From: Squalus acanthias
Taxonomy: Eukaryota
Length of the DNA: 64,000 nt
Assembly: GCA_030390025.1 (NCBI GenBank)
Contig: CM059431.1
Coordinates: 103,604,001-103,668,000 of the forward strand
Direction: 5' to 3'
Both the position numbers and the translations under genes were made by a program. Positions 7,247-43,806 of this stretch are shown piece after piece; within the stretch, counting starts at the first letter, position 1; each line of letters begins with the position of its first letter. Below the pieces are notes generated by a model that saw only the letters and a list, made by a program, of their open reading frames with translations, did not search any database and was not told the origin of the DNA.

Positions 7247-8425
7247 AGTGACTCCACTTCAAAGGTACTTCATTGGCTGCAAAGTGCTTTGCAACGTCCT
7301 GAGGTTGTGAAAGGCGCCGTAGAACTTCAGGTCCTTCTTTCCTTTTATTCTTTTCCTGTGTATTACGCTCAAGAACAATTTTCACCGTGACGTATTTTAA
7401 TGGCCTTTCTTACAACTTAAAAAAAAACTTGTTTTTTTTTAGCTCTACACCTCGGTGCACATTCCAATGCATAATTCACACTCCAACCCTGACCTGTACT
7501 TGGTATAGTTCCAAGACTCTCATTTAAAAGTATTTGCGGTTGCAGTACAGCTTTGATTGAAGCAACACCTTATGGTGAGTTCTTAGTACATCGGCACCAT
7601 GCTCAATTATGAAGTACATAGTGACAAATAACTTTTCATGGGTGACTTCACTTCTCGTTGTTTCCAGTAAATGGCTGATACTTTTTTATGACATGCATTC
7701 AGTAATTAGCCTGGCTGGTACCAGACGTGGGCTAGCGGCAACCAGAACTGACAGACAGAGGTCACTCCTAGGAGGCTCCGCAACAGATGGTGTACAGATT
7801 GGTGTTGGAAGTGAAATTTTATGTGAATAAGACATTAAGGTCTACGTTTCATTTGTTTTGTATTGAGATTGGTGAACTCTTCGAAGGAAACAAATTCAAT
7901 TTTCATGCATCTTTCATGCCTCGATTCCCCCCAAAAATGTGATTTGGTTTTAGAGCTGCTGTATTTATGCCCTTCATTGGATGGGATAAAAAAAAATTGG
8001 CTAGTAAGGGAGCACTTTCTCATATTATCATGCTGCGCGTAGCTCAACATTCCTATTTTAATTTCAGTCAATGAGAACTGTCTTTGTGAACATAAATTTC
8101 AGAAATTGCAATAAATTATAACTGTCATTGACTACTTATAATTTACAAATAATGCATCATAAAGGGCAATATGACATAGAATCTACAGCACAGAAACAGG
8201 CCATTCGGCCCAACTGGTCCGTGCCGGTGTTTATGCTCCACACCAGCCTCCTCCCACCCCTCTTCATCTCACCCTGTCAGCATAACCTTCTATTCCTTTC
8301 TCCCTCATGTGTTTATCTATCTTCCCCTTAAATGTATCTCTGCTATTCGCCTCATCTACTCCCTGTGGTAGCGAGTTACACATTCTCACCACTCTCTGGG
8401 TAAAGAAGTTTCCTTAATTGGATAT

Positions 8426-10167
8426 GATGCCACTACAGACTTCTTGCAGAAACTCAGCACCCATGGACCAGTTGAACCAGGAACACTCCTCGCCACGATG
8501 GACGTATCGGCACTCTACACCAATATCCCCCACAATGACGGCATCGCTGCGACAGCCTCAGTACTCAACACCAACAACAGCCAATCTCCAGACGCCATCC
8601 TACAACTCATCCGCTTCATGCTTGACCACAATGTCTTCACCTTCGACAACCAGTTTTTTACCCATGGGGACCAAATTCGCACCCCAATATGCCAACATCT
8701 TCATGCACAAGTTCGAGCAAGACTTCTTCGCTGCACAGGACCTCCAGCCAACGCTGTACACCAGATACATCGACGACATCTTCTTCCTTTGGACCCACGG
8801 CGAAGGATCACTGAAAGGACTACACGATAACATCAACAGGTTCCATCCCACCATCAAACTCACCATGGACTACTCCTCAGAATCGGTTTCATTCTTGGAC
8901 ACACGAATCTCCATCAAAGATGGACACCTCAGCACTTCACTCTACCGCAAGCCCATGGACAACCTCACGATGCTCCACTTCTCCAGCTTCCACCCTAACC
9001 ACGTTAAAGAAGCCATCGCCTATGGACAAGCCCTGCGAATACACAGGATCTGCTCAGACGAGGAGGAACGTGATGGACACCTACGGACGCTGAAAGACGC
9101 CCTCATAAGAACGGGATATGACGCTCGACTCGTCGATTGACAGTTCCGACGGGCCACAGCGAAAAACCGCATAGACCTCCTCAGAAGGCGAACACGGGAC
9201 ACAACCAACAGAGTACCCTACGTCGTCCAGTACTTCCCCGGAGCGGTGAAACTACGCCATGTTCTTCGCAGCCTTCAACATGTCATCGATGACGACGAAC
9301 ACCTTGCTAAGGCCATCCCCACGCCTCCACTACTCGCCTTCAAGCAGCCACCTAACCTCAAAAGTACCATCGTTCGCAGCAAATTACCCAGCTGTCAGGA
9401 GAACAGCGACCACGACACCACACAACCCTGCCACGGCAAGCTCTGCAAGACATGCCAGATCATCAACACAGATACCATCATCACACGTGAGGACACTACC
9501 CACCAGGTACATGGTACATACTCATGTGACTCGGCCAACGTTGCCTACCTCATACGTTGCAGGAAAGAATGCACTGCGGCATGGTACATTGGCGAGACCA
9601 TGCAGACACTGAGACAACGTATGAACGGACACCGCGCAACAATCGCCAGGCAGGATTGTTACCTCCCAGTCAGGGAACACTTCAGCAGTCAAGGACATTC
9701 AGCCTCGGATCTGCGGGTTAGCGTTCTCCAAGGCGGCCTTCGAGACACACGACAACGCAAAATCATCGAGCAGAAACTGATAGCCAAGTTCCGCACCCAT
9801 GAGGACGGCCTCAATAGGGATCTCGGGTTCATGTCATGCTACAGAACGTGACTCGACAGCTTTGTCTGTCTTTCCAGTTTAAAAAAAAACACAAAAAAAA
9901 AGTTAAAAGCTTAACTGCAGACGGCAGCATTTGACACGTTGGACCCCCTGTGACCCACCTCATTGTCTTAGCTGTACTCTGATGTGTCTTTGATGTAATG
10001 CCTCCCTAACAGATTGTATCTCTGCAGACAAATTGTTCTCTGTGTATATATACTGTGTAATAGATTCCCTCACTGTACCTTTACCTGAAGAAGGAGCGGA
10101 GCTCCGAAAGCTCGTCATTTTAAATAAAACTGTTGGACTATAACCTGGTGTTGTGCGACTTCTCATT
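8426..10167 (+). pseudogene. Penelope-like element (RT + GIY-YIG), 5'-truncated and decayed
   Basis: MDVSALYT, MGTKFAPQYAN, RYIDDIFF, VAYLIRC...WYIGET; a small deletion/frameshift near 8660 and a stop at 9138-9140 relative to the copy at 30016; flanked by ttaattggatat on both sides. Confidence 0.92.
10082..10116 (+). ncRNA. Minimal type-I hammerhead ribozyme motif (slightly degenerate) in the Penelope terminal repeat
   Basis: CTGAAGA-A-GGAGC(gga)GCTCC-GAAA-GCTC; stem I is poorly paired compared with the 32183 copy. Confidence 0.6.
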
Positions 10168-10599
10168 TTAATTGGATATATTAGTGATTATCTTATATTT
10201 ATGGCCCCTAGTTCTGGTCTCCCCCAAAAGTGGAAACATCTTCTTTCTGTGTCTACCCTATCAAAACCTTTCGTAATTTTAAGGACCTCCATTAGGTCAT
10301 CCCTCCTCCTTCTCTTTTCCAGAGAATAGAGCCCGAGCCTGTGCAGCCTTTCCTGATAGGTACAACATCTCAGTTCTGGTATCATCCTTTTAATACTGAC
10401 TCTCTGTAGATGCCAGCCCCCATTGCCTGCTTTTTTTTTTAGAAATTCACAAGTGGCAGAGATCAAGAAGACCGATCTCCACCTGATTTCCCCACGGTGC
10501 CCACAACCCCCCCCCCCACCAGGTTACAGGTTTAGCCGTTCCCTATAATACATTTAGATGCTCTGCTTTTGCCACTGTGAACGCAACAAAGACGTTTAA

Positions 10600-10867: not shown

Positions 10868-11378
10868 TCACAACAACTTGTATTTATATAGCGTCTTTAA
10901 CGTAGTTAAACATCCCGCGGCACTTCACAGGAACGATTATGAAACAAAATTTGAGAAGTCGCACAACACCAGGTTATAGTCCAACAGCTTTATTTGAAAT
11001 CACAAGCTTTCGGAGCGCTGCTCCTTCGTCAGGTGAAGCGAGCAGCACTCCGAAAGCTTGTGATTTCAAATAAAGCTGTCGGACTATAACCTGGTGTTGT
11101 GCGACTTCTCACATTTGTCCACCCCAGTCCAACACCGGCATCTCCGCATCAAACAAAATTTGACACCGAGCCACATAAGGAGATATTAGAACAGGTTTTT
11201 AAGGAGCGTCTTAAAGGCGATAAGAGAGGAAAAGAGGCGGAGAGGTTTAGGGAGGGAATTTCAGAGCTTGGGGCACAGGCAGCTGAAGGCACGGCCGCCA
11301 ATGGTGGAGCGATGAAAATCAGGGGGATGTGCAAGAAGCCAGAATTGGAGGAGCGCGGAGATCTGGGAGGGTTGTAGA
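10868..11378 (-). mobile_element. L2 3' end interrupted by a Penelope-derived mini-element
   Basis: The L2 tail resumes at aaacaaaatttgacaccgag (11151). Confidence 0.8.
10952..11150. mobile_element. Non-coding inverted pair of Penelope terminal repeats, with an intact hammerhead motif on the minus strand
   Basis: 10952-~11025 is the reverse complement of ~11040-11111, and both arms match the Penelope 3' ends (ggactataacctggtgttgtgcgacttctca); the minus strand at 11037-11000 reads ttcac CTGACGA a ggagc agc gctcc GAAA gctt gtga. Confidence 0.85.
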
Positions 11379-12029
11379 GCTTCTGCTACACTTGGGCAGG
11401 CTGAGCAAGTGGCAGCAATCCCATTCGCCTACAGCCTGACTCCATTCTCCAAGCAAGCCCAGAGTAAAATGTCAGATACAATAACATAATTATTTGCTAT
11501 GTCAATGCCACTTCGCCAGAGGTCCCAGCTGGGTAAGATAGTTGCCCAGGCAAATATTTAAAAAAAAAAATTCAATATAACCTCATTTAAAGTAAATAAA
11601 TGGAATTGCACTGTTTCTGTAACCCGTTCAAACTAATTCTATTTCGGTTCCTCAAATTTCCTTCAGTATATCTACATTTTTCAGCTGATGGAATATTTTG
11701 CTCTTTCTTAAGATGGTTAAAACTGACACAAATGCTGCCGTAGCCGAAACGAGCCGATTCGTGGCCTCAGTTTAAGGGTAAGATCATTCTGACTTCATTT
11801 TGTATTTTAATTTATGAACAGACAGAGAGCTCAGTAAATGAGCTTCAGCATCTATGAAGAAGTGAATATGAATTTAAAATTCTCAAAGGGATTGACCAAA
11901 AATATCACAAACAATTACATTTCCAATGCCAAAGCTCAAGAGCCGCTGACTGCTTTTGGACTGTAATAGTTGCTTTGCAAATATTTTCTTTGATTTCAAA
12001 GTTGCAATGCCGGATGAATCCTATTACGT

Positions 12030-21545: not shown

Positions 21546-23980
21546 ATACTGAGGGAGCGCTGCACTGTCGGAGGTGGGGGGGCAGTACTGAGGGAGTGCT
21601 GCACTGTCAGAGGGGCAGTACTGAGGGAGCGCTGCACTGTCGGAGGGGCAATACTGAGGGAGTGCTGCACTGTTGGAGGGGCAGTACTGAGGGAGTGCTG
21701 CACTGTTGGAGGGGCAGTACTGAGGGAGCGCTGCACTGTCGGAGGGGCAATACTGAGGGAGTGCTGCACTGTTGGAGGGGCAGTACTGAGGGAGCGCTGC
21801 ACTGTCGGAGGGGCAGTACTGAGGGAGCGCCGCATGTTGGAGGGGCAGTACTGAGGGAGCGCTGCACTGTCAGAGGGGCAGTACTGAAGGAGCGCTGCAC
21901 TGTTGGAGGGCAGTACTGAGGGAGTGCTGCACTGTTGGAGGGGCAGTACTGAGGGAGCGCTGCACTGTCGGAGGGGCAATACTGAGGGAGTGCTGCACTG
22001 TTGGAGGGGCAGTACTGAGGGAGCGCTGCACTGTCGGAGGGGCAGTACTGAGGGAGCGCCGCATGTTGGAGGGGCAGTACTGAGGGAGCGCTGCACTGTC
22101 AGAGGGGCAGTACTGAAGGAGCGCTGCACTGTTGGAGGGCAGTACTCAGGGAGCGCTGCACTGTTGGAGGGGCAGGACTGAGGGAGTGCTGCACTGTCGG
22201 AGGGGCAGTACTGAGGGAGCGATGCACTGTCGGGGGGCAGTACTGAGGGAGCGCCGCACTGTCGGAGGGGCAGTACTGAGGGAGTGCTGCACTGTTGGAG
22301 GGGCAGTACTGAGGGAGCGCTGTACTGTCGGAGGAGCAGTACTGAGGGAGTGCTGCGCTGATGGAAGGGCAGTACTGAGGCAGCGCCGCACTGTCGGAGG
22401 GGCAGTACTGAGGGAGTGATGCACTGTCGGAGGGGCAGTACTGAGGGAGAGCTGCACTGTCGGAGGGGCAGTACTGAGGGAGTGCTGCACTGTCGGAGGG
22501 GCAGTACTGAGGGAGCGATGCACTGTCGGAGGGGCAGTACTGAGGGAGCGATGCACTGTCGGGGGGCAGTACTGAGGGAGTGATGCACTGTCGGGGGGCA
22601 GTACTTAGGGAGCGATGCACTGTCGGGGGGCAGTACTGAGGGAGCACTGCACTGTCGGAGGGGCAGTACTGAGGGAGTGCTGCACTGTCGGAGGGGCAGT
22701 ACTGAGGGAGCGCTGCGCTGACGGAGGGGCAGTACTGAGGGAGCGCCGCACTGTCGGAGGGGCAGTACTGAGGGAGTGCTGCACTGTCGGAGGGGCAGTA
22801 CTGAGGGAGCGCTGTACTGTCGGAGGGGCAGTACTGAGGGAGTGCTGCACTGATGGAGGGGCAGTACTGAGGGAGCGCCGCACTGTCGGAGGGGCAGTAC
22901 TGAGGGAGTGATGTACTGTCGGAGGGGCAGTACTGAGGGAGAGCTGCACTGTCGGAGGGGCAGTACTGAGGGAGTGCTGCACTGTCGGAGGGGCAGTACT
23001 GAGGGAGCGATGCACTGTCGGAGGGGCAGTACTGAGGGAGCGCTGCACTGTTGGAGGTTCAGTACTGAGGGAGCGCTGTACTGTCGGAGGAGCAGTACTG
23101 AGGGAGTGCTGCGCTGATGGAAGGGCAGTACTGAGGGAGCGCCGCACTGTCGGAGGGGCAGTACTGAGGGAGTGATGCACTGTCGGAGGGGCAGTACTGA
23201 GGGAGAGCTGCACTGTCGGAGGGGCAGTACTGAGGGAGTGCTGCACTGTCGGAGGGGCAGTACTGAGGGAGCGATGCACTGTCGGGGGGCAGTACTGAGG
23301 GAGTGATGCACTGTCGGGGGGCAGTACTTAGGGAGCGATGCACTGTCGGGGGGCAGTACTGAGGGAGCACTGCACTGTCGGAGGGGCAGTACTGAGGGAG
23401 TGCTGCACTGTCGGAGGGGCAGTACTGTGGGAGCGCTGCGCTGACGGAGGGGCAGTACTGAGGGAGCGCCGCACTGTCGGAGGGGCAGTACTGAGGGAGT
23501 GCTGCACTGTCGGAGGGGCAGTACTGAGGGAGCGCTGTACTGTCGGAGGGGCAGTACTGAGGGAGTGCTGCGCTGATGGAGGGGCAGTACTGAGGGAGCG
23601 CCGCACTGTCGGAGGGGCAGTACTGAGGGAGTGATGCACTGTCGGAGGGGCAGTACTGAGGGAGAGCTGCACTGTCGGAGGGGCAGTACTGAGGGAGTGC
23701 TGCACTGTCGGAGGGGCAGTACTGAGGGAGCGATGCACTGTCGGAGGGGCAGTACTGAGGGAGCGCTGCACTGTCGGGGGGCAGTACTAAGGGAGCGCTG
23801 CACTGTCGGAGAGGCAGTACTGAGGGAGCGCCGCACTGTCGGAGGGGCAGTACTGAGGGAGCGCCGCACTGTCGGAGGAGCAATACTGAGGGAGCGCCGC
23901 ACTGTCGGAGACGCAGTACTGAGGGAGCACTGCACTTTTGGAGGGGTAGTACTGAGGGAGTGCTGCATTGTCGGAGGGGC
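21546..23980. repeat. 33-bp minisatellite (about 74 units) derived from a DeuSINE internal segment
   Basis: Unit cagtactgagggagcgctgcactgtcggagggg; the last unit runs directly into the SINE body at 23981. Confidence 0.95.
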
Positions 23981-24310
23981 CATCTTTCAGTTAGATGTTA
24001 AACTGAGGCCCCATCTGCTCTCGCAGGTGGACGTAAAAGATCCCGCGGCCACTATTTCAAATAAGAGCAGGGGAGTTATCCCCGGTGTCCTGGGGCCAAT
24101 ATTTATCCCTCAACCAACATCACTAAAACCAGATTATCAGGTCATTATCACATCGCTGTTTGTGGGACTTTGCTGTGCGCAAATTGGCTGCCGCGTTTCC
24201 TACATTACAACAGCGCCTACACTTCAAAAAGTACTTCATAGGCTGTAAAGCACTTTGGGACGTCCTGAGGTCATGAAAGGCGCTATATAAATGCAAGTTC
24301 TTTCTTCCTT
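23981..24310 (+). mobile_element. DeuSINE body and tail (5' part replaced by the minisatellite)
   Basis: catctttcagttagatgttaaactgaggcccc...aggcgctatataaatgcaagttctttc. Confidence 0.9.
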
Positions 24311-29667: not shown

Positions 29668-30016
29668 AATGACTTGGATGTGGGTGTACAGGGGACAATT
29701 TCAAAATTTGCAGATGACACAAAATTTTGAAGCATAGTGAACAGTGAGGAGGAAAGCGATAGACTTTAAGAGGACATAGACAGGCAGGTGGAATGGGCGG
29801 ACACATGGCAGATGAAATTTAATGCAGAAAAGTGCAATGCGATACATTTTGGTAGAAAGAATGAAGAGAGGAAATATAAACTAAAGGGTACAATCCTGAA
29901 GGGTGTGCATGAACAGAGAGACCTGGGGGTATATGTGCACAAATCGTTGAAGGTGGCAGAGCAGGTTGAGAAAGCAGTTAAAAAAGCTTACGGGATCCTG
30001 GGCTTCATAAATAGAC

Positions 30017-31849
30017 GCTCTCAAGACCAACCGCAACATTGTCATCAAACCAGCGGACAAAGGAGGAGCCATCGTCATACAGAACAGAACGGACTATTGT
30101 AAAGAAGCATACCGACAACTGGACAACCAGGAACACTACAGACAGCTACCCGCAGATCCGACCAAAGAACACACCCGCCAACTCAATAGACTGATCAAGA
30201 CCTTCGATCCAGACCTTCAAAACATCCTACGCGCTCTCATCCCACGTACTCCCCGCTTGGGAGACTTCTACTGCCTCCCAAAGATACACGAAGCCAACAC
30301 ACCCGGACGTCCTATCGTATCAGGCAATGGAACCCTGTGTGAGAACCTCTCTGGATACGTCGAGGGCATTCTGAAACCCATCGTACAGGGAACCCCCAGC
30401 TTCTGTCGCGACACTACAGACTTCTTACAGAAACTCAGCACCCACGGACCAGTTGAACCAGGAACACTCCTTGCCACGATGGACGTATCGGCACTCTACA
30501 CCAGTATCCCCCACGATGACGGCATCGCTGCAACAGCCTCAGTACTCAACATCAACAACAGCCAATCTCCAGACGCCATCCTACAACTCATCCGCTTCAT
30601 CCTTGACCACAATGTCTTCACCTTCGACAACCATTTTTTTACCCAAACACACGGAACAGCCATGGGGACCAAATTCGCACCCCAATACGCCAACATCTTC
30701 ATGCACAAGTTCGAGCAAGACTTCTTCGCTGCACAGGACCTCCAGCCAACGCTGTACACCAGATACATCGACGACATTTTCTTCCTTTGGACCCATGGCG
30801 AAGGATCACTGAAAAGACTACACGATAACATAAACAAGTTCCATCCCACCATCAAACTCACCATGGACTACTCCTCAGAATCGGTCTCATTCCTGGACAC
30901 ACAAATCTCCATCAAAGACGGACACCTCAGCACTTCACTCTACCGCAAGCCCACGGACAACCTCACGATGCTCCACTTCTCCAGCTTCCACCCTAACCAT
31001 GTTAAAGAAGCCATCCCCTATGGACAAGCCCTGCGAATACACAGGATCTGCTCAGACGAGGAGGAACGCGATGGACACCTACGGACGCTGAAAAACGCCC
31101 TCGTAAGAACGGGATATGACGCTCGACTCATCGATCGACAGTTCCGACGGGCCACAGCGAAAAAACGCATAGACCTCCTCAGAAGGCAAACACGGGACAC
31201 AACCAACAGGGTACCCTACGTCGTCCAGTACTTCCCCGGAGCGGAGAAACTACGACATGTTCTTCGCAGCCTTCAACATGTCATCGATGACGACAAACAC
31301 CTCGCTAAGGCCATCCCCACGCCTCCACTACTTGCCTTCAAACAGCCGCCTAACCTCAGAAGTACCATCGTTCGCAGCAAATTACCCAGCTTTCAGGATA
31401 ACAGCGACCACGACACCACACAACCCTGCCATGGCAAACTCTGCAAGACATGCCAGATCATCAACACAGATACCACCATCACACGTGAGGACACTACCCA
31501 CCAGGTACATGGTACATACTCATGTGACTCGGCCAACGTTGTCTACCTCATACGTTGCAGGAAAGAATGCACCGCGGCATGGTACATCGGCGAGACCATG
31601 CAGACACTGAGACAACGTATGAACGAGCACCGCGCAACAATTGCCAGGCAGGATTGTTACCTCCCAGTCGGGGAACACTTCAGCAGTCAAGGACATTCAG
31701 CCTCGGATCTGCGGGTAAGCGTTCTCCAAGGCAACCTTAGAAACACACGACAACGCAAAATCATCGAGCAGAAACTGATAGCCAAGTTCCGCACTCATGA
31801 AGACGGTCTCAATCGGGATCTTGGGTTTATGTCACGATACATGACGTGA
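30017..31849 (+). CDS. Penelope RT / GIY-YIG endonuclease polyprotein (partial, no natural start)
   Basis: Frame open from the insertion junction: IKPADKGGAIV, FYCLPKIH, GRPIVS, MDVSALYT, GTAMG, YIDD, Cys linker PCHGKLCKTC, VVYLIRC...WYIGET...RQRMNEH. Confidence 0.9.
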   Translation, partial: ALKTNRNIVIKPADKGGAIVIQNRTDYCKEAYRQLDNQEHYRQLPADPTKEHTRQLNRLIKTFDPDLQNILRALIPRTPRLGDFYCLPKIHEANTPGRPIVSGNGTLCENLSGYVEGILKPIVQGTPSFCRDTTDFLQKLSTHGPVEPGTLLATMDVSALYTSIPHDDGIAATASVLNINNSQSPDAILQLIRFILDHNVFTFDNHFFTQTHGTAMGTKFAPQYANIFMHKFEQDFFAAQDLQPTLYTRYIDDIFFLWTHGEGSLKRLHDNINKFHPTIKLTMDYSSESVSFLDTQISIKDGHLSTSLYRKPTDNLTMLHFSSFHPNHVKEAIPYGQALRIHRICSDEEERDGHLRTLKNALVRTGYDARLIDRQFRRATAKKRIDLLRRQTRDTTNRVPYVVQYFPGAEKLRHVLRSLQHVIDDDKHLAKAIPTPPLLAFKQPPNLRSTIVRSKLPSFQDNSDHDTTQPCHGKLCKTCQIINTDTTITREDTTHQVHGTYSCDSANVVYLIRCRKECTAAWYIGETMQTLRQRMNEHRATIARQDCYLPVGEHFSSQGHSASDLRVSVLQGNLRNTRQRKIIEQKLIAKFRTHEDGLNRDLGFMSRYMT

Positions 31850-32182
31850 TCCGGACTCGAGTCGTCGTTAGCTTGTTCACAGATGTGATTCCCAGTAAAA
31901 AAGTAAAAATTTTCCCAGTAAAAAAGTAAATTTTTTTTAAAGCTTTTCGTTTTACATACAGACGGCAGCTTTTGACACGTTGGAACCCCTGCGACTACAC
32001 CTCATTGTCTCAGTTGTATCTTGCTATGTCTTTTGATGTGGTACCTTCCTGGCTGACTTAATTAACTTTATCACACCTCGGCAGATAGTCAGGATGATTT
32101 AATTTATTGGTCTGCAATTGTAAAGTACACATGCTTTTTTTTCCATCTATATATGCTCTGGCGATTCTGTATCCAATTTACT

Positions 32183-32220
32183 TCACCTGAGGAAGGAGCG
32201 ATAGCTCCGAAAGCTTGTGA
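32183..32220 (+). ncRNA. Minimal type-I hammerhead ribozyme motif
   Basis: tcac-CTGAGGA-a-ggagc(gata)gctcc-GAAA-gctt-gtga: stem I tcac/gtga, 5-bp stem II, palindromic aagctt in place of stem III. Confidence 0.75.
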
Positions 32221-33309
32221 TTTCAAATAAAACTGTTGGACTATAACCTGGTGTTGTGCGACCTCTCAATTTCATAAATAGAGGCATAGAGTACAAAAGC
32301 GTGGAAATTATGATGAACCTGTATAAAACACTGGTTCGGCCTCAACTGGAGTATTGTGTCCAATTCTGGGCACCGCACTTTAGGAAGGATGTGAAGGCCT
32401 GAGAGAGGGTTCAGAAAAGATTTACGAGACTGATTCCTGGGATGAGGGACTTCAGTTACGTTGATAGACTGGAGAAGCTGGGGTTGTTCTCCTTGGAGCA
32501 GAGAAGATTGAGAGGAGATTTGATAGAGGTGTTCAAAATCACGAGGGGTCTAGACAGAGTAGATAGAGAGAAACTGTTCCCATTGGCGGAAGGGTCGAGA
32601 ACCAGAGGACCCAGATCCAAGGTGATTGGCCGAAGAACCAAAGCAACATGTGGAAAAACTTTTTTACTCAGCGAGTGGTGGTGATCTGGAATGCACTGCC
32701 TGAAAGGGTGGTGGAGGCAGACTCAATCGTGGCTTTCAAGGAAAAAGATTTGCAGGGCTACGGGGAAAGGGCGGGGCAGTGCGACTAGCTGAAGTGCTCT
32801 TGCAGAGAGCCAGCACGGGCTCGACGGACCGAATGGCCTGCTTCTGTGCTGTAACCATTCTATGATTCTTTGATTCTAAGTCTTTCTTTCTTTCTATTGA
32901 TAAAATGCCATTGCTTAATCCAATACCGACTAAAATCTGGAGTACGCCGTGACATATTTCACTATAATTTTAGCCTGCACTTCCACTGAATTACACTTCA
33001 AACCTTACCCCCTCAGTGGAAATAAGAACCTACAAGATTGTTGCTTAAAAACTAATTTATCTTGTAGCCAAAGGAAGGAAAGTAGTTCCAAATACATAAG
33101 ATAAGATCGAGTGTGCCATTTAATAAAAATAAATGACAACATCCTTCATTTTAAAAGGCTGAGTGTAAGTACTGCTATATTCTGAATGCATTATAAAAAA
33201 TGATTAGCTTTGCATTTGAGAAACATAAACACTACAATGTTACTGTTCAACAAACACTGTGGCAGAAAGTTTTATACACCCATATTAATCTGCTGAATGA
33301 GGAAACTAT

Positions 33310-34800: not shown

Positions 34801-35981
34801 CTCACGTGAACTTCTTGAATTTACGCCAGTTCTGAACTAGCTCTAAAATTTACAACTGAGGTTTTAGGTGCAGCAGAACTCCAAGTCATATTCCTGCTGT
34901 TATTTTTCAGCATTTATTTTATGTTGCTTATTTCTCCTCACTGAAACCTAAACAAGACTCAGGGGCGAGCGTGACACCCACTGTGGATGGGCTGGAGGAT
35001 GCATTTAAAAAATAAAATTTGTTCACAGGAGGTACGCTTCCGACCGCAAATTCCCAGTCAATACATTGAGCTGGAGCAGCTGTGGAATACTGTGCACGCG
35101 AATTGATGCCTTGGATTTTAAAGTTTTATAGATTGATATCTCCATGTTCTATAAATCACTGTTGATGCACAAAACCTTCGAGTTACTTTCGCTTGACTGG
35201 GAGGCTGCTCAAGAAGCCAACATTTGCACATTGCATTGATCAAACATCGACACCATGGGCTCAGGTTCCACTGCCTAAGTTTAATTGGAAAATCCTTTGC
35301 TGCAACCTGCTGCAGCTGCACGAGGATCAAATCTCCATTCAGCTTCTGAGAAAGGCCTTCACCATCAGCGGCGCATCACCGCATGTTTATTTGCATGTGT
35401 TTGCATATATTAGCATATGTAAATGGCTTGCTGAGGCAGGCGATTTGAATAATGCAAAACATAACTTCCAATTCGGTCCCTTAATTTGATGCTGGCGGTA
35501 TGCTCAGATGCCATTTGTAGAATAAATTGGCAGTTTTCCCCATTGAGTGAGGGCATTTCATGCCACATAATAGTCTAAGGGTTTTTAAAGTCCACAAGGT
35601 GCAATATTAACACTTAGGGGGAAAAATTCAGTTGATTAGCGCCTCCCGTTAGCGCCCTAAGAGGGCGCTAATGGGGCACAAAGCAACTAGCACCCGGGCG
35701 CGGCGATGTTTGCGCTACACTACCGCCACGATCTCCTGCGCCCACAGATCGTGACGTCAGTTGAGCGTGCAATACCCCGGTAGCGCCCCGGACCGGATAT
35801 TGAGTGGCGCCCCCTGCCTTTCCGCCTGCCGATAGCAACGACAGGTAGAGGGGAACGTTTTGCAGTTGGGAAGGGACTGGGGGAGTGCTACTTAAAAGTG
35901 GCCGCTTCCTGCCTTTTTTTGTCGGCGACATTTTTGCACCACGCAGTCTGAGAGAGAGAGAGAGACTTCTGGAGAGATTCA

Positions 35982-37109
35982 ATGCTGTGTGAAGGAGTTT
36001 TGGGTACTGAGCATCACTTTGCAGTTTCATTTTTATTTGACCTTCATTGCAACGATTTAGAAGAGACTGTGGGGGCTGCACTGATTCGGGGCGTCGTCCT
36101 GCACCTGCAGAATCGGAGGCAGCAGAGACGCAGAGAGAGAGTGGCAAACATGGCTAGAGGGAGGGAGGCCAACAGGCCTCTGCACAGGAGACCTTACCCT
36201 CCCAGGGTATTCCGGGAACAATTCTCCTACATTCATTTGTCTGAGGAGCAGTGTTTGCGCAGGCTGCGCTTCAGCAAGGAGGTGGTCACTGAGCTCTGCC
36301 ACCTGCTGCAACCAGATCTGCAGCCTCAACTGAGGACCAGGACGTCTCTGTCGGTGGCAGTGAAGGTGACAGTGGCTCTGAATTTTTATGCCAGTGGCTC
36401 CTTTCAAGCATCTACTGGGGACATCGCCAATATCTCCCAGTTCGCTGTCCATTGTTGTATCTGGGAGGTGACAAATGTCATGTATAAAAGGAGACGCCAG
36501 TACATCTCTTTCCCCATGACCTGGGCCAAACAGCATGAACGCACATGTGGCTTTGCTAGGATAGCGGGCTTCCCCATGGTGCAGGGCGCCATTGACTACA
36601 TGCATGTGACATTGCAGGCACCGCATGAAAATACAGAGGTATTCCGAAACCACAAGGGCTACCACTCCTTAAATGTGCAGTTGGTCTGTGACCAGACACG
36701 TCTCATACTCGCCGTCAATGCCCGCTATCCTGGCAGCAGCCACGATGCTTTCATCCTGCGCCAGACTGGTGTGCTAGACCTTTTCCAGGCAGTGCACCAG
36801 CCAAGTGGATGGCTCCTCGGGGACAAGGGTTATCCACTCTGCACCTGGCTGATGACACCGCTCCGTGACCCCAACACCCCTGCTGAGCTGTGGTATAATG
36901 AGAGCCATATCACCACCAGGAACATAATTGAGCAGACGATCGGCATGCTCAAGCAACGGTTCCGCTGTCTGGACCACTCAGGAGGAGCCCTGCAGTACTC
37001 TCCTGAGCTAGTCTCCCTCTTCATAGTTGTGTGCTGCATGCTTCACAACCTGGCAATCCTGAGGACCCAGCCAATGCCACCAGGGATTGGTGCACCACCT
37101 GAGGAGGAG

Positions 37110-37141
<32 letters not shown>

Positions 37142-37232
37142 TGATCAGCAGCAGCACCAACGTGGGAGGGAGGCCCACAATGTTCCCAGTGCAAGGGCCG
37201 TACGTCAATGGCTGATAACAAGCCGCTTCTAG
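35982..37232 (+). CDS. Harbinger (HARBI1-like) DDE transposase
   Basis: RRLRFSKE, VALNFYASGSFQ, GFPMVQGAID, SLNVQLVCD, YPGSSHDAFIL, GWLLGDKGYP, RNIIEQTIGMLKQRFRCL, CCMLHN, acidic tail; start uncertain (first ATG at 36150). Confidence 0.9.
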
Positions 37233-37542: not shown

Positions 37543-39286
37543 CTACTGTTTGCCCTTCGAGGCTGATCTCCATCCCCTGCGCACTTGCCCCCTTCCCACC
37601 CTACTGCTCCTCCGTAATGGGGCCCTAGTGGCTGCAGCAAGGCTGGTGGAAGGCTGCTGATTGTCAGAACCTGAGACTACAGATGCCCTTGAAGGACAAC
37701 CTGGACCAGCTCTGGGCCTGGAGGGCCCGGCTGCAGACTGCACCAACTCTGCATGGGCGGCAGCAGTCTGGGCTGGCTGTGTTGCAGGTGGTGGCAAGTG
37801 CAATGGGGGAAGTGCCAGTGGTGGGAGCAGGAATGCTGTCATCCTGAGAGAGGACAGCACCTTCCTGCTTGAACCACACACTGGCACTCCCATGGGGCAG
37901 TACCTCAGCATCCGGAGCAATCTGCTCGAGCACAGATTGCTGGCCTGCTGCGGCGCGATGAGAGCCCCGGGGCAATGTGGCTGACCCAGCGAGGGTGGCA
38001 GCAGTCAGTGCTTGCGTGACATCAATCTGAGACTGCATGAGAGCAGTCTGAGACTGGATGGCACCAGCCAATGACTGAATTGCAGCACTAAGCCGTTGCG
38101 TTGCATCGGCCTGTGCTGCAGCAGAGTGCTCCACACTCCTAGCCAGTCCATCAATGCTTTCGTGCACCCTTGCTATTGCACCCATGAGCTCAGTGTGCAA
38201 GCTCAAGGCCTGGCTATTCATGGCAGCGATGACGCGGTTCTCCTCTGAGTCCAGTGCAGCAGGACTCGCTTGCCTACTCGCCCTCTGGGGAGATGGCCCC
38301 CGAGCTTCCCTACCCCTATGGCGTTGCTGCAGCCCACTGGGTCCCGGAGCTTGGCCCTCATCAGACCCTACCCCCCTGCTCCCCTCCAGGGAAGGCGTGG
38401 TCCCAGTGTCGGTATGGGCTCCCTTGGGAGACGCAGGCGGTGAGGCTCCGGCTTCCTCTTCCTCCTCGCCTGGGGCGTCGCTGACACTGGTAGGTTAAGG
38501 ACAGGCTGGTCAGCTGGTGGTTCACTATCTGAAAGCAGGGAGGTACAAGAGTGGCTTTAGCGTCAGGACAGGGGGGCAGTAAGGGAGCAAGGACTGGAGA
38601 GAGTTAGTAAGTTGGATTGAAAGTGTAAAAGGCTGGTCTTGTGAGGGGCAAGTGGAATGAGAGAGGAGAGAAAGCTGATGAACATACCATAGCTGTCCCC
38701 AAGGTGGTCGACCTCTCCAGCGGCCACGGCACCTATGACCTGGCTGGCAACGATCCTGTGCACGCACACCTCCAAATCGCTGAGGGTGTGTAGGTCAGCC
38801 GGTCCTCCTCCCGTCCGCCTGTTATGAGAGAGCTTGGCCTGCAAGAAAAAGGACGGCGTCTGAGTGAATGTGCAGCCATGTGCTTGCCTGATGTGCCTCC
38901 CATAGTTGAATAACCCTTGTGTGCGTGTGTGTTTTATGAGATGGCCATAGGTCTTGGATGAGTGTTGGGCATTTGGGGTTTTTAAACCCTCTGGGACAGA
39001 GTGAAGTTGAGATGGAGGGATGTAGAGGTATTGAAAAGCAGCCACTCACCCTGACCACCCGAGTGAGGTCGTTGAACTTCTTCCGACATTGGGTGTGGGT
39101 CCTCGGCACCAGGCTTCTCGAGGAGACGTGCTGAGCCCCCTCCCTCCAGACTCTTCTGTATTCGTGGGGCAATGGCCTCCTACCACTCTGTGGGTAGAGC
39201 AGTGCTCGTCGCCGCTCCACTGCACCAACCAGAGCCACCAAGGCCCGGTCGCTGAAGCACTGAGCTCTTTCCCTGGGCCTATCCAT
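37543..39286 (-). pseudogene. Harbinger Myb/SANT-like DNA-binding gene, 3 predicted exons (39286-39050, 38838-38688, 38528-37543), frameshifted in exon 3
   Basis: MDRPRERAQCFSDRALVALV...RRVWREGAQHVSSRSLVPRTHTQCRKKFNDL; donors gtgagt and gtatgt, acceptors tttttcttgcag and ctgctttcag; exon 3 needs frameshifts near ~38495 and ~37810. Confidence 0.75.
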
Positions 39287-39645
39287 TGGTGGTTCCAGCA
39301 CAATTGATGTACAGGTCTCTCCAGGCCGAGATTCAAGGCTACAATGAGCAGGATGTGGATGGAGAGCAAGATGGCCCCTCCCCTTTAAGAACTGGCCGGG
39401 GCCAGTGTGTCTGTGTTCCATTGCTAACTGACATCACCTGAGCTTCGCCAGCGCTCTGAGTTAGCGCCTCGCTCCTCGACGTTAGCGCCTTAAGACAGAT
39501 GTGTAGCGCCTGATTTAGCGCTCCAATCACCTCCAGGGGCGATAGAGGCCAAGTCTGCAGTCGGAGGCGATAAATAGCGCCGGCGCTAAACTTGGCGCCC
39601 GGCCGATAATAGCACCCCAAACGGGGTGATACCGAATTTCCCCCC

Positions 39646-39860: not shown

Positions 39861-39960
39861 ATTTAATCAACTTGATATCGTCTCCACGCTTTGGGTGATT
39901 CGGAACAACCAGCTGCAACTCGAACCACAGAAGGGAACTAGGGCAAGAAACTGATCCATC

Positions 39961-40761
39961 ATGGAAAAACTCCTTAGACCCACTCGTCTCGACCTGGACC
40001 CGAATGCACCTGCGGCAGCGAAGGTATGGAAGCATTGGTTTCGTACCTTTAGCAACTTTCTTGAAGAATGTGGGGCGGATGTCCCTAATAAGTTAGGAAT
40101 GCTTATCAACTACGTGTCTCCTCATGTGTATGATTATATTGAGGACTGTATAGTCTATGACACTGCTATCGAAATCTTACAGCAGCTATATGTCAAGTCC
40201 CCAAATGAAATATTTGCTCGACACCTACTGGCCATAACTCGGCAGCAGCCTGGGGAATCACTCGATGAATTTCTCCAGAAACTTCGCAGGCTCAGCAAGG
40301 ATTGTAACCTTAAAGCAGTTACAGCTGAACAGTATCAAGAGGAACTAATCCGCGATTCCTTTATCAATGGAATCGCGTCCCGTTTTATACGTCAGCGCCT
40401 GCTGGAAAATAAAACCCTCAATTTACGGGCTGCTTATGACCAGGCGTGTTCCTTGGACTTGGCCAAGAAAAATGCAGACACTTATCTCCCACCACGTGCA
40501 CGGGCGGCGGCTATCTCCTTTAATGAGTCTTTCGGTAGGTCTCGGGCGGATGCCCCCACTGATGTTGACTCTACTCTAACGGACGACGACCCTACCCTAG
40601 AGGCCTTCGCTGATGACGACCCCGCCCTAGCAGCATCCTGGCAATCAGGAAGAAAGTGTTTCTTTTGTGGAGGGGCGTGCCATCACAGAAAATTTTGCCC
40701 GGCTCGTAATGTGACCTGCAATCATTGCAGCAAGAAAGGACACTTTTCCAAGGTATGCTAG
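39961..40761 (+). CDS. Gag with two Cys/His knuckles
   Basis: LRPTRLDLDPN...WKHW, RQQPGESLDEFLQKL, LIRDSFINGI, CFFCGGACHHRKFC, CNHCSKKGHFSKVC; ends at a TAG in frame with pol. Confidence 0.9.
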   Translation: MEKLLRPTRLDLDPNAPAAAKVWKHWFRTFSNFLEECGADVPNKLGMLINYVSPHVYDYIEDCIVYDTAIEILQQLYVKSPNEIFARHLLAITRQQPGESLDEFLQKLRRLSKDCNLKAVTAEQYQEELIRDSFINGIASRFIRQRLLENKTLNLRAAYDQACSLDLAKKNADTYLPPRARAAAISFNESFGRSRADAPTDVDSTLTDDDPTLEAFADDDPALAASWQSGRKCFFCGGACHHRKFCPARNVTCNHCSKKGHFSKVC

Positions 40762-43700
40762 TCACGGGCCTTTGCTAACAAGAAAGGCCGCTCCTCTAAA
40801 GTATACCGGTCGAGAGCTCCTGTTAGCTTCACAGCTGCTATCTATGGAGCTGCTCCTCCCCCAAGAACTACTGTTAAGGCTACAGTTGCCGAAGTGAAAA
40901 TTGCCCCTCCTCCCATCACGGCTGTTTTTCCCCAAAGTTTGTCCCATGCAGCCACGAAGGTTTCAGTAAATGGGCACACTCTAAGCGCGCTAATCGACTC
41001 CTGCAGCTCTGACAGCTTCATTAGTAAGCGGGCTGTCAACAGGTTAAAACTGCACATTTATCCCTCGGACAGGGAGATTGCAATGGCTCTGACGACTCTG
41101 ACCACCAATTCTTCTGGCTTCTGTCTGGTCAACCTCATCCTCAACGGCCGCACGTATCTCTCCACCCGGCTCGGAGTACTCGCAAACTTATGCAGCGATG
41201 TGCTTCTGGGACAGGACTTCCAGAAGCAGCACAAGAAGATCACTTTTGAGTTTGGAGGGTCAAGGCCGGAGCTTACCATTTCTAAGGTGCCGTTTTGTGC
41301 ACTCTCGGCGGCCTTACTCGGTGAACCCTCCCTGTTTGCCAATCTTCCCCCCCGCTGTAAACCCATAGCCACCAAATCGCGGCGCTTTAGCCAAGACGAT
41401 CGAGCGTTTATTGAGGCGGAAATCTCTCGCCTTTTAGTCGACGGTATTATCGAGCCATGTTCATCTCCCTGGCGGGCTCAGGTCGTCATCGTGAGGAATC
41501 CCTTAAAACAACATAAAAAACGTCTGTGTATCGATTATTCGCAGACTATTAATCTATATACCGATCTGGATGCCTACCCGCTGCCACGCATAGATGACAT
41601 GGTCAACAACCTTGCCAAATACAAGGTATTCTCGACCTTCGATTTAAAAAGCGCGTACCATCAGGTGCCACTGCAAGACTCCGACAAGAAGTATACGGCC
41701 TTTGAGGCCAATGGTCGGCTTTTCCAGTTTCGCCGCCTTCTATTCGGGGTCACCAATGGGGTGGCCGTCTTCCAACGGGCCATGGATGGCCTAGTCCGGC
41801 AAGAGAACTTGACGGATACCTTTCCGTATTTAGACAATATCACTATTGCCGGCCATGATCAAAAGGAGCATGACGCCAATCTTCAGAGATTTTTTGACGT
41901 ACTCCGCCGTCGCCACTTAACGTTAAACGAATCCAAATCAGTGAAGTCGGTGCCATCGGTGAACATTCTTGTCTACTGGGTGGGCAACGGTGTTATTAAA
42001 CCGGACCCAGAGCGACTTCGTCCACTTCAGGAGCTCCCTCCCCCGACGAACCTCGGCTCTCTTCGTCGGGCACTTGGCATGTTTGCTTATTACGCAAAAT
42101 GGATACCACACTTCTCCGATAAAATACAGCCCCTGCTCCATGCGAAGTCTTTTCCATTGGAAGCTACGGCTATTTCTGCCTTCAACCTCCTCAAACGACA
42201 GCTGGAGAAAGCCACGCTTCGCTCCATTGACGAAAATCTTCCTTTTGTGGTCGAATGCGATGCATCGGAGGTGGCGATCTCCGCTACCTTGAATCAAGGT
42301 GGCCGACCCGTGGCATTCCTATCCAGAACCTTGCAGGGTAGTGAGCTCCATTACCCCCCCGTCGAGAAGGAGGCTACGGCCATCATCGAGGCTGTACACC
42401 AATGGGGTCATTTTCTTGCTCGGCGTCATTTTACGCTTATAACTGACCAGCGCTCTGTGGCCTTCATGTTGGATAACCGGAGGCGCACGAAAATCAAAAA
42501 TAATAAAATTCAACTCTGGAGGATGGAGCTGGCTGCCTTTGGATATACTATCTGTTACCGACCCGGCAAACAGAACGTGGCCCCAGATACCTTCACACGG
42601 GCATTTTGCTCCTCAATGTCAACGTCGACTCTGGCGGATTTGCATATGGACTTATGCCATCCTGGTGTGACCCGCATGTTGCACTTTGTGCGCTCCAAAA
42701 ATCTACCATTTTCAACCGAGGACGTAAAGAAAACATGCTCCTCCTGTAGGATTTGTGCAGAATTGAAACCACAATTCTTTCGCCCATCAGATGGCTTACT
42801 CATACATGCAATGCAGCCTATGCAGAGGCTCAGCATAGACTTTAAAGGGCCATTGCCTTCGTCGACAAGGAACACCTACCTACTTACGATGGTGGACGAG
42901 TATTCGCGCTTTCCCTTCGCCTTCCCCTGCCCTAATATGCTTACCTCTACGGTAATTAAATGCCTCGATCAGGTCTTTTCCCTTTGCGGGACGGCCAATT
43001 TTATCCACACTGATCGGGGTCCCTCCTTTATGTCGAGTGAACTTAAAAGTTATCTCTCCCAACGGGGAATCGCCTCAAGTAGGACGACACCATATCACCC
43101 AATCGGTAACGGACAGGTTGAACGATACAATGCCATCATCTGGAACGCTGTCCGTCTGGCACTAAGGTCACGCAACCTGCCGGACCAGCAGTGGGAAACG
43201 GTGCTCCCCGACGCGTTACACTCTATCAGGTCTCTTCTCTCCACATCTACTAATGTCACGCCTCATGAGCGATTCTTCAAATTCCGGCGTCGCTCTACAC
43301 ATGGGACGTCTCTACCGTCATGGTTGGTGGCTCCAGGCCCGGTACTACTCCGGAGGTTCGTCCGGTCTGCCAAAAACGACCCTCTCATTGACGAGGTGGA
43401 GTTAACGGAGGTAAACCCCACGTATGCGCACGTACGGTACCCTGATGGCCGGGAGACCACCGTCTCGCTCCGAGATCTGGCTCCCTGCCCAACCGGTCAC
43501 ACGGGCCCGAATGATGAAGGATCCCCCGACAATGATATCAACACTCCGCACCCCTATGAAAATGACGCCCCGCCTGGGACATCGGGGGATCTGCTGGCAA
43601 CGCTACCGGATCAACTCAGGGAGCTGGACGCTCCCCGTAGGATGGCCACCCGAAACCAGGACGCCGGACAATCTCCAGTCACGACCCGGGATGAGGCCAG

Positions 43701-43806
43701 CTCAGCACCTGTGGGGACCCGCACCCGGAGTCATGATATTCCCAGTCCTCCACAGGATGATCAAGATGACGTGGACTCTACTGACTTACCGGTACGGGCC
43801 AAGTGA
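40762..43806 (+). CDS. Pol (protease, RT, RNase H, integrase), same frame as gag
   Basis: LIDSCS (protease), DAYPLPRIDD, FDLKSAYHQV, YLDN, ECDAS, EKEA, TDQ, HHCC, IDFKGP, TDRG, GQVER; no stop between 40762 and 43803. Confidence 0.92.
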   Translation, partial: SRAFANKKGRSSKVYRSRAPVSFTAAIYGAAPPPRTTVKATVAEVKIAPPPITAVFPQSLSHAATKVSVNGHTLSALIDSCSSDSFISKRAVNRLKLHIYPSDREIAMALTTLTTNSSGFCLVNLILNGRTYLSTRLGVLANLCSDVLLGQDFQKQHKKITFEFGGSRPELTISKVPFCALSAALLGEPSLFANLPPRCKPIATKSRRFSQDDRAFIEAEISRLLVDGIIEPCSSPWRAQVVIVRNPLKQHKKRLCIDYSQTINLYTDLDAYPLPRIDDMVNNLAKYKVFSTFDLKSAYHQVPLQDSDKKYTAFEANGRLFQFRRLLFGVTNGVAVFQRAMDGLVRQENLTDTFPYLDNITIAGHDQKEHDANLQRFFDVLRRRHLTLNESKSVKSVPSVNILVYWVGNGVIKPDPERLRPLQELPPPTNLGSLRRALGMFAYYAKWIPHFSDKIQPLLHAKSFPLEATAISAFNLLKRQLEKATLRSIDENLPFVVECDASEVAISATLNQGGRPVAFLSRTLQGSELHYPPVEKEATAIIEAVHQWGHFLARRHFTLITDQRSVAFMLDNRRRTKIKNNKIQLWRMELAAFGYTICYRPGKQNVAPDTFTRAFCSSMSTSTLADLHMDLCHPGVTRMLHFVRSKNLPFSTEDVKKTCSSCRICAELKPQFFRPSDGLLIHAMQPMQRLSIDFKGPLPSSTRNTYLLTMVDEYSRFPFAFPCPNMLTSTVIKCLDQVFSLCGTANFIHTDRGPSFMSSELKSYLSQRGIASSRTTPYHPIGNGQVERYNAIIWNAVRLALRSRNLPDQQWETVLPDALHSIRSLLSTSTNVTPHERFFKFRRRSTHGTSLPSWLVAPGPVLLRRFVRSAKNDPLIDEVELTEVNPTYAHVRYPDGRETTVSLRDLAPCPTGHTGPNDEGSPDNDINTPHPYENDAPPGTSGDLLATLPDQLRELDAPRRMATRNQDAGQSPVTTRDEASSAPVGTRTRSHDIPSPPQDDQDDVDSTDLPVRAK

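Follow-up and report, generated by a model that had tools for sequence, protein, structure and literature searches.

A palindromic stub in the Squalus acanthias genome, probably left by head-to-head insertion of a Neptune-type Penelope-like element

Results

Organization of the locus

The window analysed here is a 64,000-nt stretch of Squalus acanthias contig CM059431.1 (assembly GCA_030390025.1, positions 103,604,001 to 103,668,000 of the forward strand). A LINE lies on its minus strand, and the 3' end of this LINE (10870-11381) is split by an insertion of about 200 bp, hereafter the stub. The preliminary description placed this insertion in an L2 tail with a duplicated target. The host repeat does read as the end of a LINE ORF on the minus strand, and the sequence AAACAAAATTTGA is present twice, once per flank, as left (10942-10954) and right (11151-11163) target-site duplication on the plus strand, the last 3 of the 13 visible nucleotides on the left being also the first 3 bases of the left arm. 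The name L2, by contrast, is a tentative label suggested by the C-terminal motif of this ORF and not by a library match. Elsewhere in the window lie what we take, from their motifs, to be a Ty3/Gypsy LTR retrotransposon with long gag-pol-like ORFs (39955-43806, plus strand) and a Harbinger/PIF-like transposase ORF (35952-37232, plus strand) that faces Myb/SANT-like partner ORFs (37664-39433, minus strand), as well as a 2.4-kb minisatellite (21546-23983) in which a unit of about 33 bp is repeated and one strand has long open frames.

The stub is made of two pLTR copies of a Penelope-like element (PLE), arranged head to head. The tail-less arm (A arm; 10952-11038, minus strand) starts 6 nt above the hammerhead core and reaches the proximal end site (...CTTCTCA), and the tailed arm (B arm; 11040-11150, plus strand) leads from inside stem II of the hammerhead to the distal end site. 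Between them, at 11039, stands a single base that is absent from either arm's template. The tailed arm terminates in a 39-nt PLE tail (11112-11150, plus strand) which spans the interval between the two end sites and, at the intact junctions of loci L054 and L211, is followed immediately by the ATG of an ORF of more than 820 codons. As had been described, the left arm is the reverse complement of the right one: the inverted-repeat arms, 10947-11023 and 11040-11116, are 77 nt each and 96% complementary, and over their shared part the tailed and tail-less arms differ by 2 substitutions. The extension of about 40 nt that had been said to continue beyond both coding Penelopes is likewise real, since the two coding elements of the window end (at 10165 and about 32270) before these 39 nt. 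The expectation that a transcript would form a hairpin agrees with the predicted folding of both strands, at -137.4 (plus) and -151.4 (minus) kcal/mol with z about -23 for each, and 0 of 200 shuffled sequences were as stable. An AATAAA (11069-11074, in the tailed arm), with a GT-rich stretch after it, lies between the hammerhead and the proximal start site in all pLTR copies; if this AATAAA were used, the mRNA would stop without reaching a further pair of start sites.

A minimal hammerhead on the minus strand

The minus strand from 11037 to 11000 reads, in order, stem I, CUGACGA, A, stem II, GAAA GCUU and stem I, a type I hammerhead motif with a predicted cut between 11004 and 11003. All core parts of the motif that the preliminary description called complete can thus be read, but the hammerhead is minimal, its stem III being a 4-nt palindrome only and not a real stem. 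It sits on the minus strand alone, as the plus arm begins at 11040 within stem II and lacks the CUGA core, again as described. Set against the list in the accessible part of PMC4209133, the hammerhead traits of the pLTR are the core, the extra base before stem II, the G-C closing pair and the palindromic 15.2-16.2. An Rfam scan of the stub gave no hammerhead match; a match to MIR7807 (57 bits; gathering score 90) was discarded, as it mirrors the long hairpin.

The ribozyme fold on the minus strand would cost 45 kcal/mol relative to the hairpin (-106.0 vs -151.4), and the hammerhead is predicted to be buried inside the hairpin and to be a passenger of the pLTR, inactive within the stub. In the available text of PMC4209133, hammerheads with a 4-nt palindromic stem III are of a type predicted to require a tandem partner, and activity was not found for a single minimal motif. 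As far as DNA can tell, the stub bears no apparent sign of an RNA parasite with a life cycle of its own.

Related coding insertions and the clade of the source element

Two long insertions in the window are related to the stub. At 8426-10167 (plus strand), a 1.7-kb tail-less arm of a coding Penelope subfamily lies within a 12-nt duplication (8414-8425 and 10168-10179), the 5 nt at its left end (8426-8430) matching the tail end in reverse. At 30016-32270 (plus strand), a 2.25-kb tail-less arm with an RT and GIY-YIG-type ORF, and without a tailed arm, lies within a 12-nt duplication (30004-30015 and 32271-32282). The stub arms are 88-94% identical to the 3' ends of these two coding elements; the closest coding partner of the stub is a third subfamily (e.g. 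L073, L095), neither of the coding copies in the window.

The coding ORFs match RVT_1 with E values of 2e-9 and 1e-8, and the motifs DKG, CCHH and YLI..C...WYIGET can be read in the ORF; Pfam did not match a GIY-YIG domain in the ORF. Upstream of the nuclease motif is located CHGKLCKTC, a CX4CxxC linker. A CX2-5CxxC motif in the RT-EN linker marks Neptune and Nematis and is missing from Penelope/Poseidon, according to the accessible text of PMC8557442, and this motif points to a Neptune-type (or Nematis) PLE as the source element.

Locus L211 (178-6354; C1:2360000-2369900) holds a 6.2-kb head-to-head insertion with a 2.9-kb tail-less and a 3.27-kb tailed arm, 99.3% alike. It carries two identical pLTRs, and its ORF begins at the distal end site and is frameshifted near its end. 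The tailed arm exceeds one unit and, in this single case, stops 10 nt above the putative start, which fits either tandem read-through or a circle template. Contigs from runs X1, X2 and X22 of three organisms, of DNA or RNA origin, contain the same element family; on L211:5600-6400 their summed depth in the pLTR and tail far exceeds that in the 3' UTR, as expected of a family rich in stubs.

Short palindromes form a continuum rather than a discrete family

The preliminary description left two options for the stub, a truncation product or a non-autonomous, retrozyme- or SINE-like family. It held that many copies sharing junction and extension would speak for the family, and a different breakpoint in every copy against it. 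In such a family, one or a few master palindromes would be transcribed, and the Penelope enzyme would re-insert them in full. Hits to the 199-mer seem to favour it, because all 40 scored hits (the best 40 of 1,700 candidates) are full length and 95-100% identical. However, hits ranked by the query favour likeness to the query, and unranked samples were drawn instead, namely 100 extension loci and 50 short palindromes, all taken in order from the start of contig C1. An asymmetry between left and right alleles that had looked like the signature of a master gene proved to be an artefact of the query-ranked hits, as it occurs in 2 of 50 unselected copies.

The genome contains 33,174 exact matches to a 30-mer of the extension, 92,044 to a 28-mer of the shared arm, and 2,375 to the short palindromic centre of the stub's subfamily group, so that short palindromes of this group number at least 2,375. 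Extrapolating from 47 of 100 tail loci at the start of C1 to 33,174 tails gives a rough total of 15,000 short palindromes. Many copies thus share the extension; it does not mark a family, because it is found in long and short insertions alike, and the junction of the window stub has a single match in the 3.7-Gb genome. Among the 100 consecutive tail loci, 7 were dropped as duplicates (L056, L077) or compound loci (L032, L045, L090, L205, L206) and in another 23 a second arm was not found within 1.5 kb, leaving 70 clean two-armed insertions whose sizes run continuously from 149 to 1,482 nt. Of these, 47 are no longer than 260 nt, and longer insertions extend further into the 3' UTR and ORF. The two duplicates belong to insertion pairs with identical flanks (L048/L056 and L076/L077), i.e. 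local segmental or assembly duplicates.

Short insertions have 42 distinct junctions in 44, and 38 distinct centres, some of them separated by point changes alone, occur among the 50 short palindromes. The breakpoint therefore differs in nearly every copy, as expected of truncation products, and the fixed internal structure that a SINE takes from its master was not found. Two junction classes do recur, each about 6 times in 50 in one orientation, as a family would predict. Yet among the 50 palindromes recurrent junctions lie at microhomologies of 3-4 nt, come in mirror forms and stand on differing subfamily backgrounds, stubs being produced by several subfamilies of the Neptune-type element. 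The commonest class has 6 junctions against 5 mirror ones; the class of the window stub is lopsided, with 6 in which the tail-less arm is long against 1 mirror. The arms of one insertion usually share their subfamily alleles, for instance in 49/50 (null mean 27.9) and 56/56 (null 43.3) comparisons, and this agreement, far above that of shuffles, also speaks against a discrete family. Two loci with distinct flanks, L109 (C1:8770410) and L111 (C1:9678680), have one unusual junction in common and an allele that differs between arms, a difference also seen in L112. This sharing could be taken as a trace of a family; it may reflect secondary copying or a mixed source.

Other features bear on the same question. 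As to a SINE-type promoter of its own, short arms end about 30 nt below the TATA box and so leave it out, which speaks neither for nor against Pol III boxes. A stub stops at the distal start site, whereas the PLE tested in vitro needs RNA past its start sites, according to the accessible part of PMC11167929. Non-autonomous PLE derivatives have been published (the available portions of PMC8557442 and 10.64898/2026.07.22.740005), and some re-mobilised stubs might form a minority of the copies. Still, a discrete family is improbable: the stubs are a continuum of insertion products and not one discrete retrozyme or SINE family. What the preliminary description saw as a possible retrozyme-like unit is head to head instead of tandem, its hammerhead is predicted to be buried, and its extension is the known PLE tail.

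Arm lengths, junctions and target duplications

All 50 short palindromes consist of one tail-less and one tailed arm (49 by script; L105, with a damaged tail on the left, by eye). Among 100 core matches there are 34 close neighbour pairs, 29 of them head-to-head and 3 on the same strand. Of 100 copies scored for target duplications, 19 lack an adjacent duplication of at least 8 nt; in the 81 usable copies the visible duplication measures 12 nt in 40 and 13 nt in 20, and the longer values fit chance extension of 12 nt. The duplications are 70% AT. In the 70 two-armed insertions, the junctions comprise 34 microhomologies, 30 with added bases and 6 blunt joins. For a putative primer at the proximal site, the match between target and template in 30 selected copies amounts to 1.9 nt, compared with a null of 0.5 and a maximum of 1.2 among 5,000 shuffles; for the distal site the corresponding values are 0.9 nt, 0.4 and 0.93.

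It has been proposed for rotifer PLEs that a cDNA or antisense template folds at a short palindrome and copies itself (PMC3846280, in its accessible part). Such fold-back self-priming would account for matching arm alleles and for palindromic centres such as those of L057, L184 and L202. However, the copy made by a folded cDNA cannot outreach that cDNA, and of the two arms the tailed one alone qualifies as first strand, and therefore the arm lengths disfavour it: in 33 of the 70 insertions it is the tail-less arm that extends further upstream, in 24 it is the tailed arm, and the two lie within 2 nt in 13, with the tail-less arm longer by 20-380 nt in 16. Moreover, the window insertions at 8426-10167 and 30016-32270 consist almost or wholly of a tail-less arm, and some arms differ at several subfamily sites. 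Fold-back is accordingly disfavoured, and we consider it an improbable source of the stubs, unless hairpin centres often undergo later asymmetric deletion.

Short arms are paired with short ones and long with long ones in 61 of 70 insertions (44:5:4:17, p=1e-8), within both subfamily strata. Two or more subfamily-type sites distinguish the arms in 5 of the 70, which suggests two RNA molecules in some events; in L078, L194, L199, L201 and L210, all short insertions, two or three such sites do so.

Arm ends accumulate below a TATA box

Stubs are not random truncations, as their ends concentrate at one position. Between 0 and -12 from the hammerhead core, 58 ends fall among 115 arms at risk, compared with 4 of 57 in the next 13 nt, a rate of 0.039 per nt against about 0.005 just beyond. 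Genome-wide, arm starts of the stub's subfamily number 375 at -8, 2,411 at -7 (a count that includes subfamily variants which are not arm ends, about 5 of 30 inspected) and 1,531 at -6 (inflated by a GAAG microhomology). Position -7 is occupied by the A of an initiator-like motif, YYACTT, that follows at a distance of about 30 nt a TATATAT invariant across 11 aligned copies from diverged subfamilies; a similar TATA/initiator-like pair is described in rotifer PLEs (PMC3846280, accessible text). From DNA ends and motifs, we infer that transcription starts at the -7 A. A G precedes the -7 A in 68 of the first 100 cases, and a -8 start in 40 of 100. This G could be what a copied cap would give, and could equally stem from the partner arm, whose next base explains 13 of 17 inspected G's as well.

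It is very improbable that hammerhead cutting of the RNA, or an enzyme stalled by the fold, sets the stub ends in place of the RNA start: end rates climb through the ribozyme region and 347 arms genome-wide begin exactly at the predicted cut site, but the main wall lies about 34 nt 5' of that site, past the whole fold, and AA or AG stands before most cut-site starts, in many cases as the partner arm's stem I complement, a 4-nt microhomology. Cleavage as a source of arm ends was set aside on this account, as stem I microhomology largely explains the cut-site starts, with a small contribution possible.

Discussion

Why insertions of PLEs so often carry an inverted partial copy has been described as undefined (PMC8557442, in the part available). 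We hold with good confidence that the stub is a short head-to-head insertion of an abundant Neptune-type PLE, in which both cut ends prime reverse transcription at two internal start sites, the copies run off the template and microhomology joins them. The stub was likely made in one event by such twin priming and is likely unable to move again. In this scheme, the protein of the element would cut both DNA strands with a 12-nt stagger, and reverse transcription would be primed by each 3' end, in one case at the proximal end of the tail and in the other at its distal end, next to the start codon of the ORF. With the 5' end of a capped mRNA as template, both copies would run off within about 90 and 130 nt, and joining of the cDNA ends through 1-6 nt of microhomology or a few added bases would give a palindrome of about 200 bp with a private centre. 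The short/long concordance of the arms, together with the pile-up of their ends, leads us to infer two template classes: the capped mRNA 5' end would yield stubs, and a longer continuous template, either a tandem read-through or a circle, would yield long copies.

The activities that twin priming calls for have a parallel in vitro, where a PLE protein cuts and extends both strands and reverse transcription starts at two internal sites that bracket the tail (PMC11167929, accessible part). Primer homology counts against this parallel, as it is about 1.9 nt at the proximal site here (null 0.5) and the available text of PMC11167929 reports none for the Penelope/Poseidon element in vitro. The 5 insertions of 70 with mismatched arms set a further limit on the mechanism, in that a single RNA molecule is not always the source of both arms.

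A more specific and clearly more tentative scenario, which we think possible though rather unlikely, is that an asymmetric enzyme pair cuts with a 12-nt stagger and makes one cDNA per tail end. With start sites about 90-130 nt from the cap, a linear mRNA would give stubs only, and long copies would need an RNA circle made by the hammerhead or a read-through tandem. If true, this would explain together the inverted repeat of PLEs, their one-sided tail and the purpose of their ribozyme.

As an object, the window stub is an ordinary dead member of a published insertion shape and of modest mechanistic value. The head-to-head shape is already in print; a twin-priming or run-off account for PLEs was not found in the literature searched, mostly open-access main texts. 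The population of stubs is useful as data and sharply predicts a proximal and a distal start in every insertion, a stagger of 12 nt, transcription from a mapped start and two classes of template. These predictions can be tested in the existing in vitro PLE system. The stubs also add thousands of near-perfect hairpins of about 75 bp to the genome, a candidate source of dsRNA.

The closest known systems are the EN+ PLEs, whose insertions show an inverted 5'-truncated copy and a tail of 30-40 bp at one end (PMC8557442, Fig. 2 legend; Adineta Pen2a, PMC3846280; both in their accessible parts). The stubs have a 5'-truncated copy head to head with the main copy and a tail of 39 nt, single in all 50 short palindromes, and the insertions of the source element are of the EN+ PLE kind. 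Head-to-head pLTRs, the tail at one end, the target duplication, the TATA box with a TCACT initiator-like motif and microhomology junctions are common to both. Unlike in the insertions published for EN+ PLEs, both halves here are cut to about 100 nt, the ORF is gone and the copies run into thousands. Relative to the rotifer elements, the duplications peak sharply at 12 bp instead of 8-10 bp, and the arm lengths argue against the fold-back proposed there.

In Schistosoma, paired minimal hammerheads on opposite strands lie 100-700 bp apart and are mentioned in one sentence beside motifs related to truncated PLEs, without junction analysis in the accessible text of PMC4209133. The stub resembles these pairs in the opposite orientation of minimal PLE hammerheads at short spacing, the extra base before stem II and the palindromic remnant of stem III, but it has one intact core only. 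With PAc, a Poseidon of Anolis (PMC11167929, in its available part), the source element shares an internal RT start site on either side of the tail, AT-rich targets, and cutting and extension of both strands. In PAc, however, the ORF begins inside the hammerhead and the start sites lie more than 100 nt into it, whereas here the ORF begins at the distal site and has the CX4CxxC linker of Neptune/Nematis, unlike the Penelope/Poseidon clade of PAc. The accessible text on PAc does not discuss inverted insertions, target duplication or microhomology.

Animal non-LTR retrozymes are, like the stub, non-coding, related to PLEs and equipped with a type I hammerhead (10.64898/2026.07.22.740005, accessible part; see also PMC7229834). 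Retrozymes are head-to-tail tandems with a hammerhead per unit, whereas in the stub the arms are head-to-head, the centre is variable and one core is broken. No head-to-tail tandem was found in the stub.

Twin priming itself is familiar from L1, in which each target strand primes a cDNA and microhomologies join the two cDNAs head to head, the second primer annealing at a variable internal site. The stubs differ from L1 in that their start sites are fixed within a few bases and, in the 50 examined, always comprise one of each kind.
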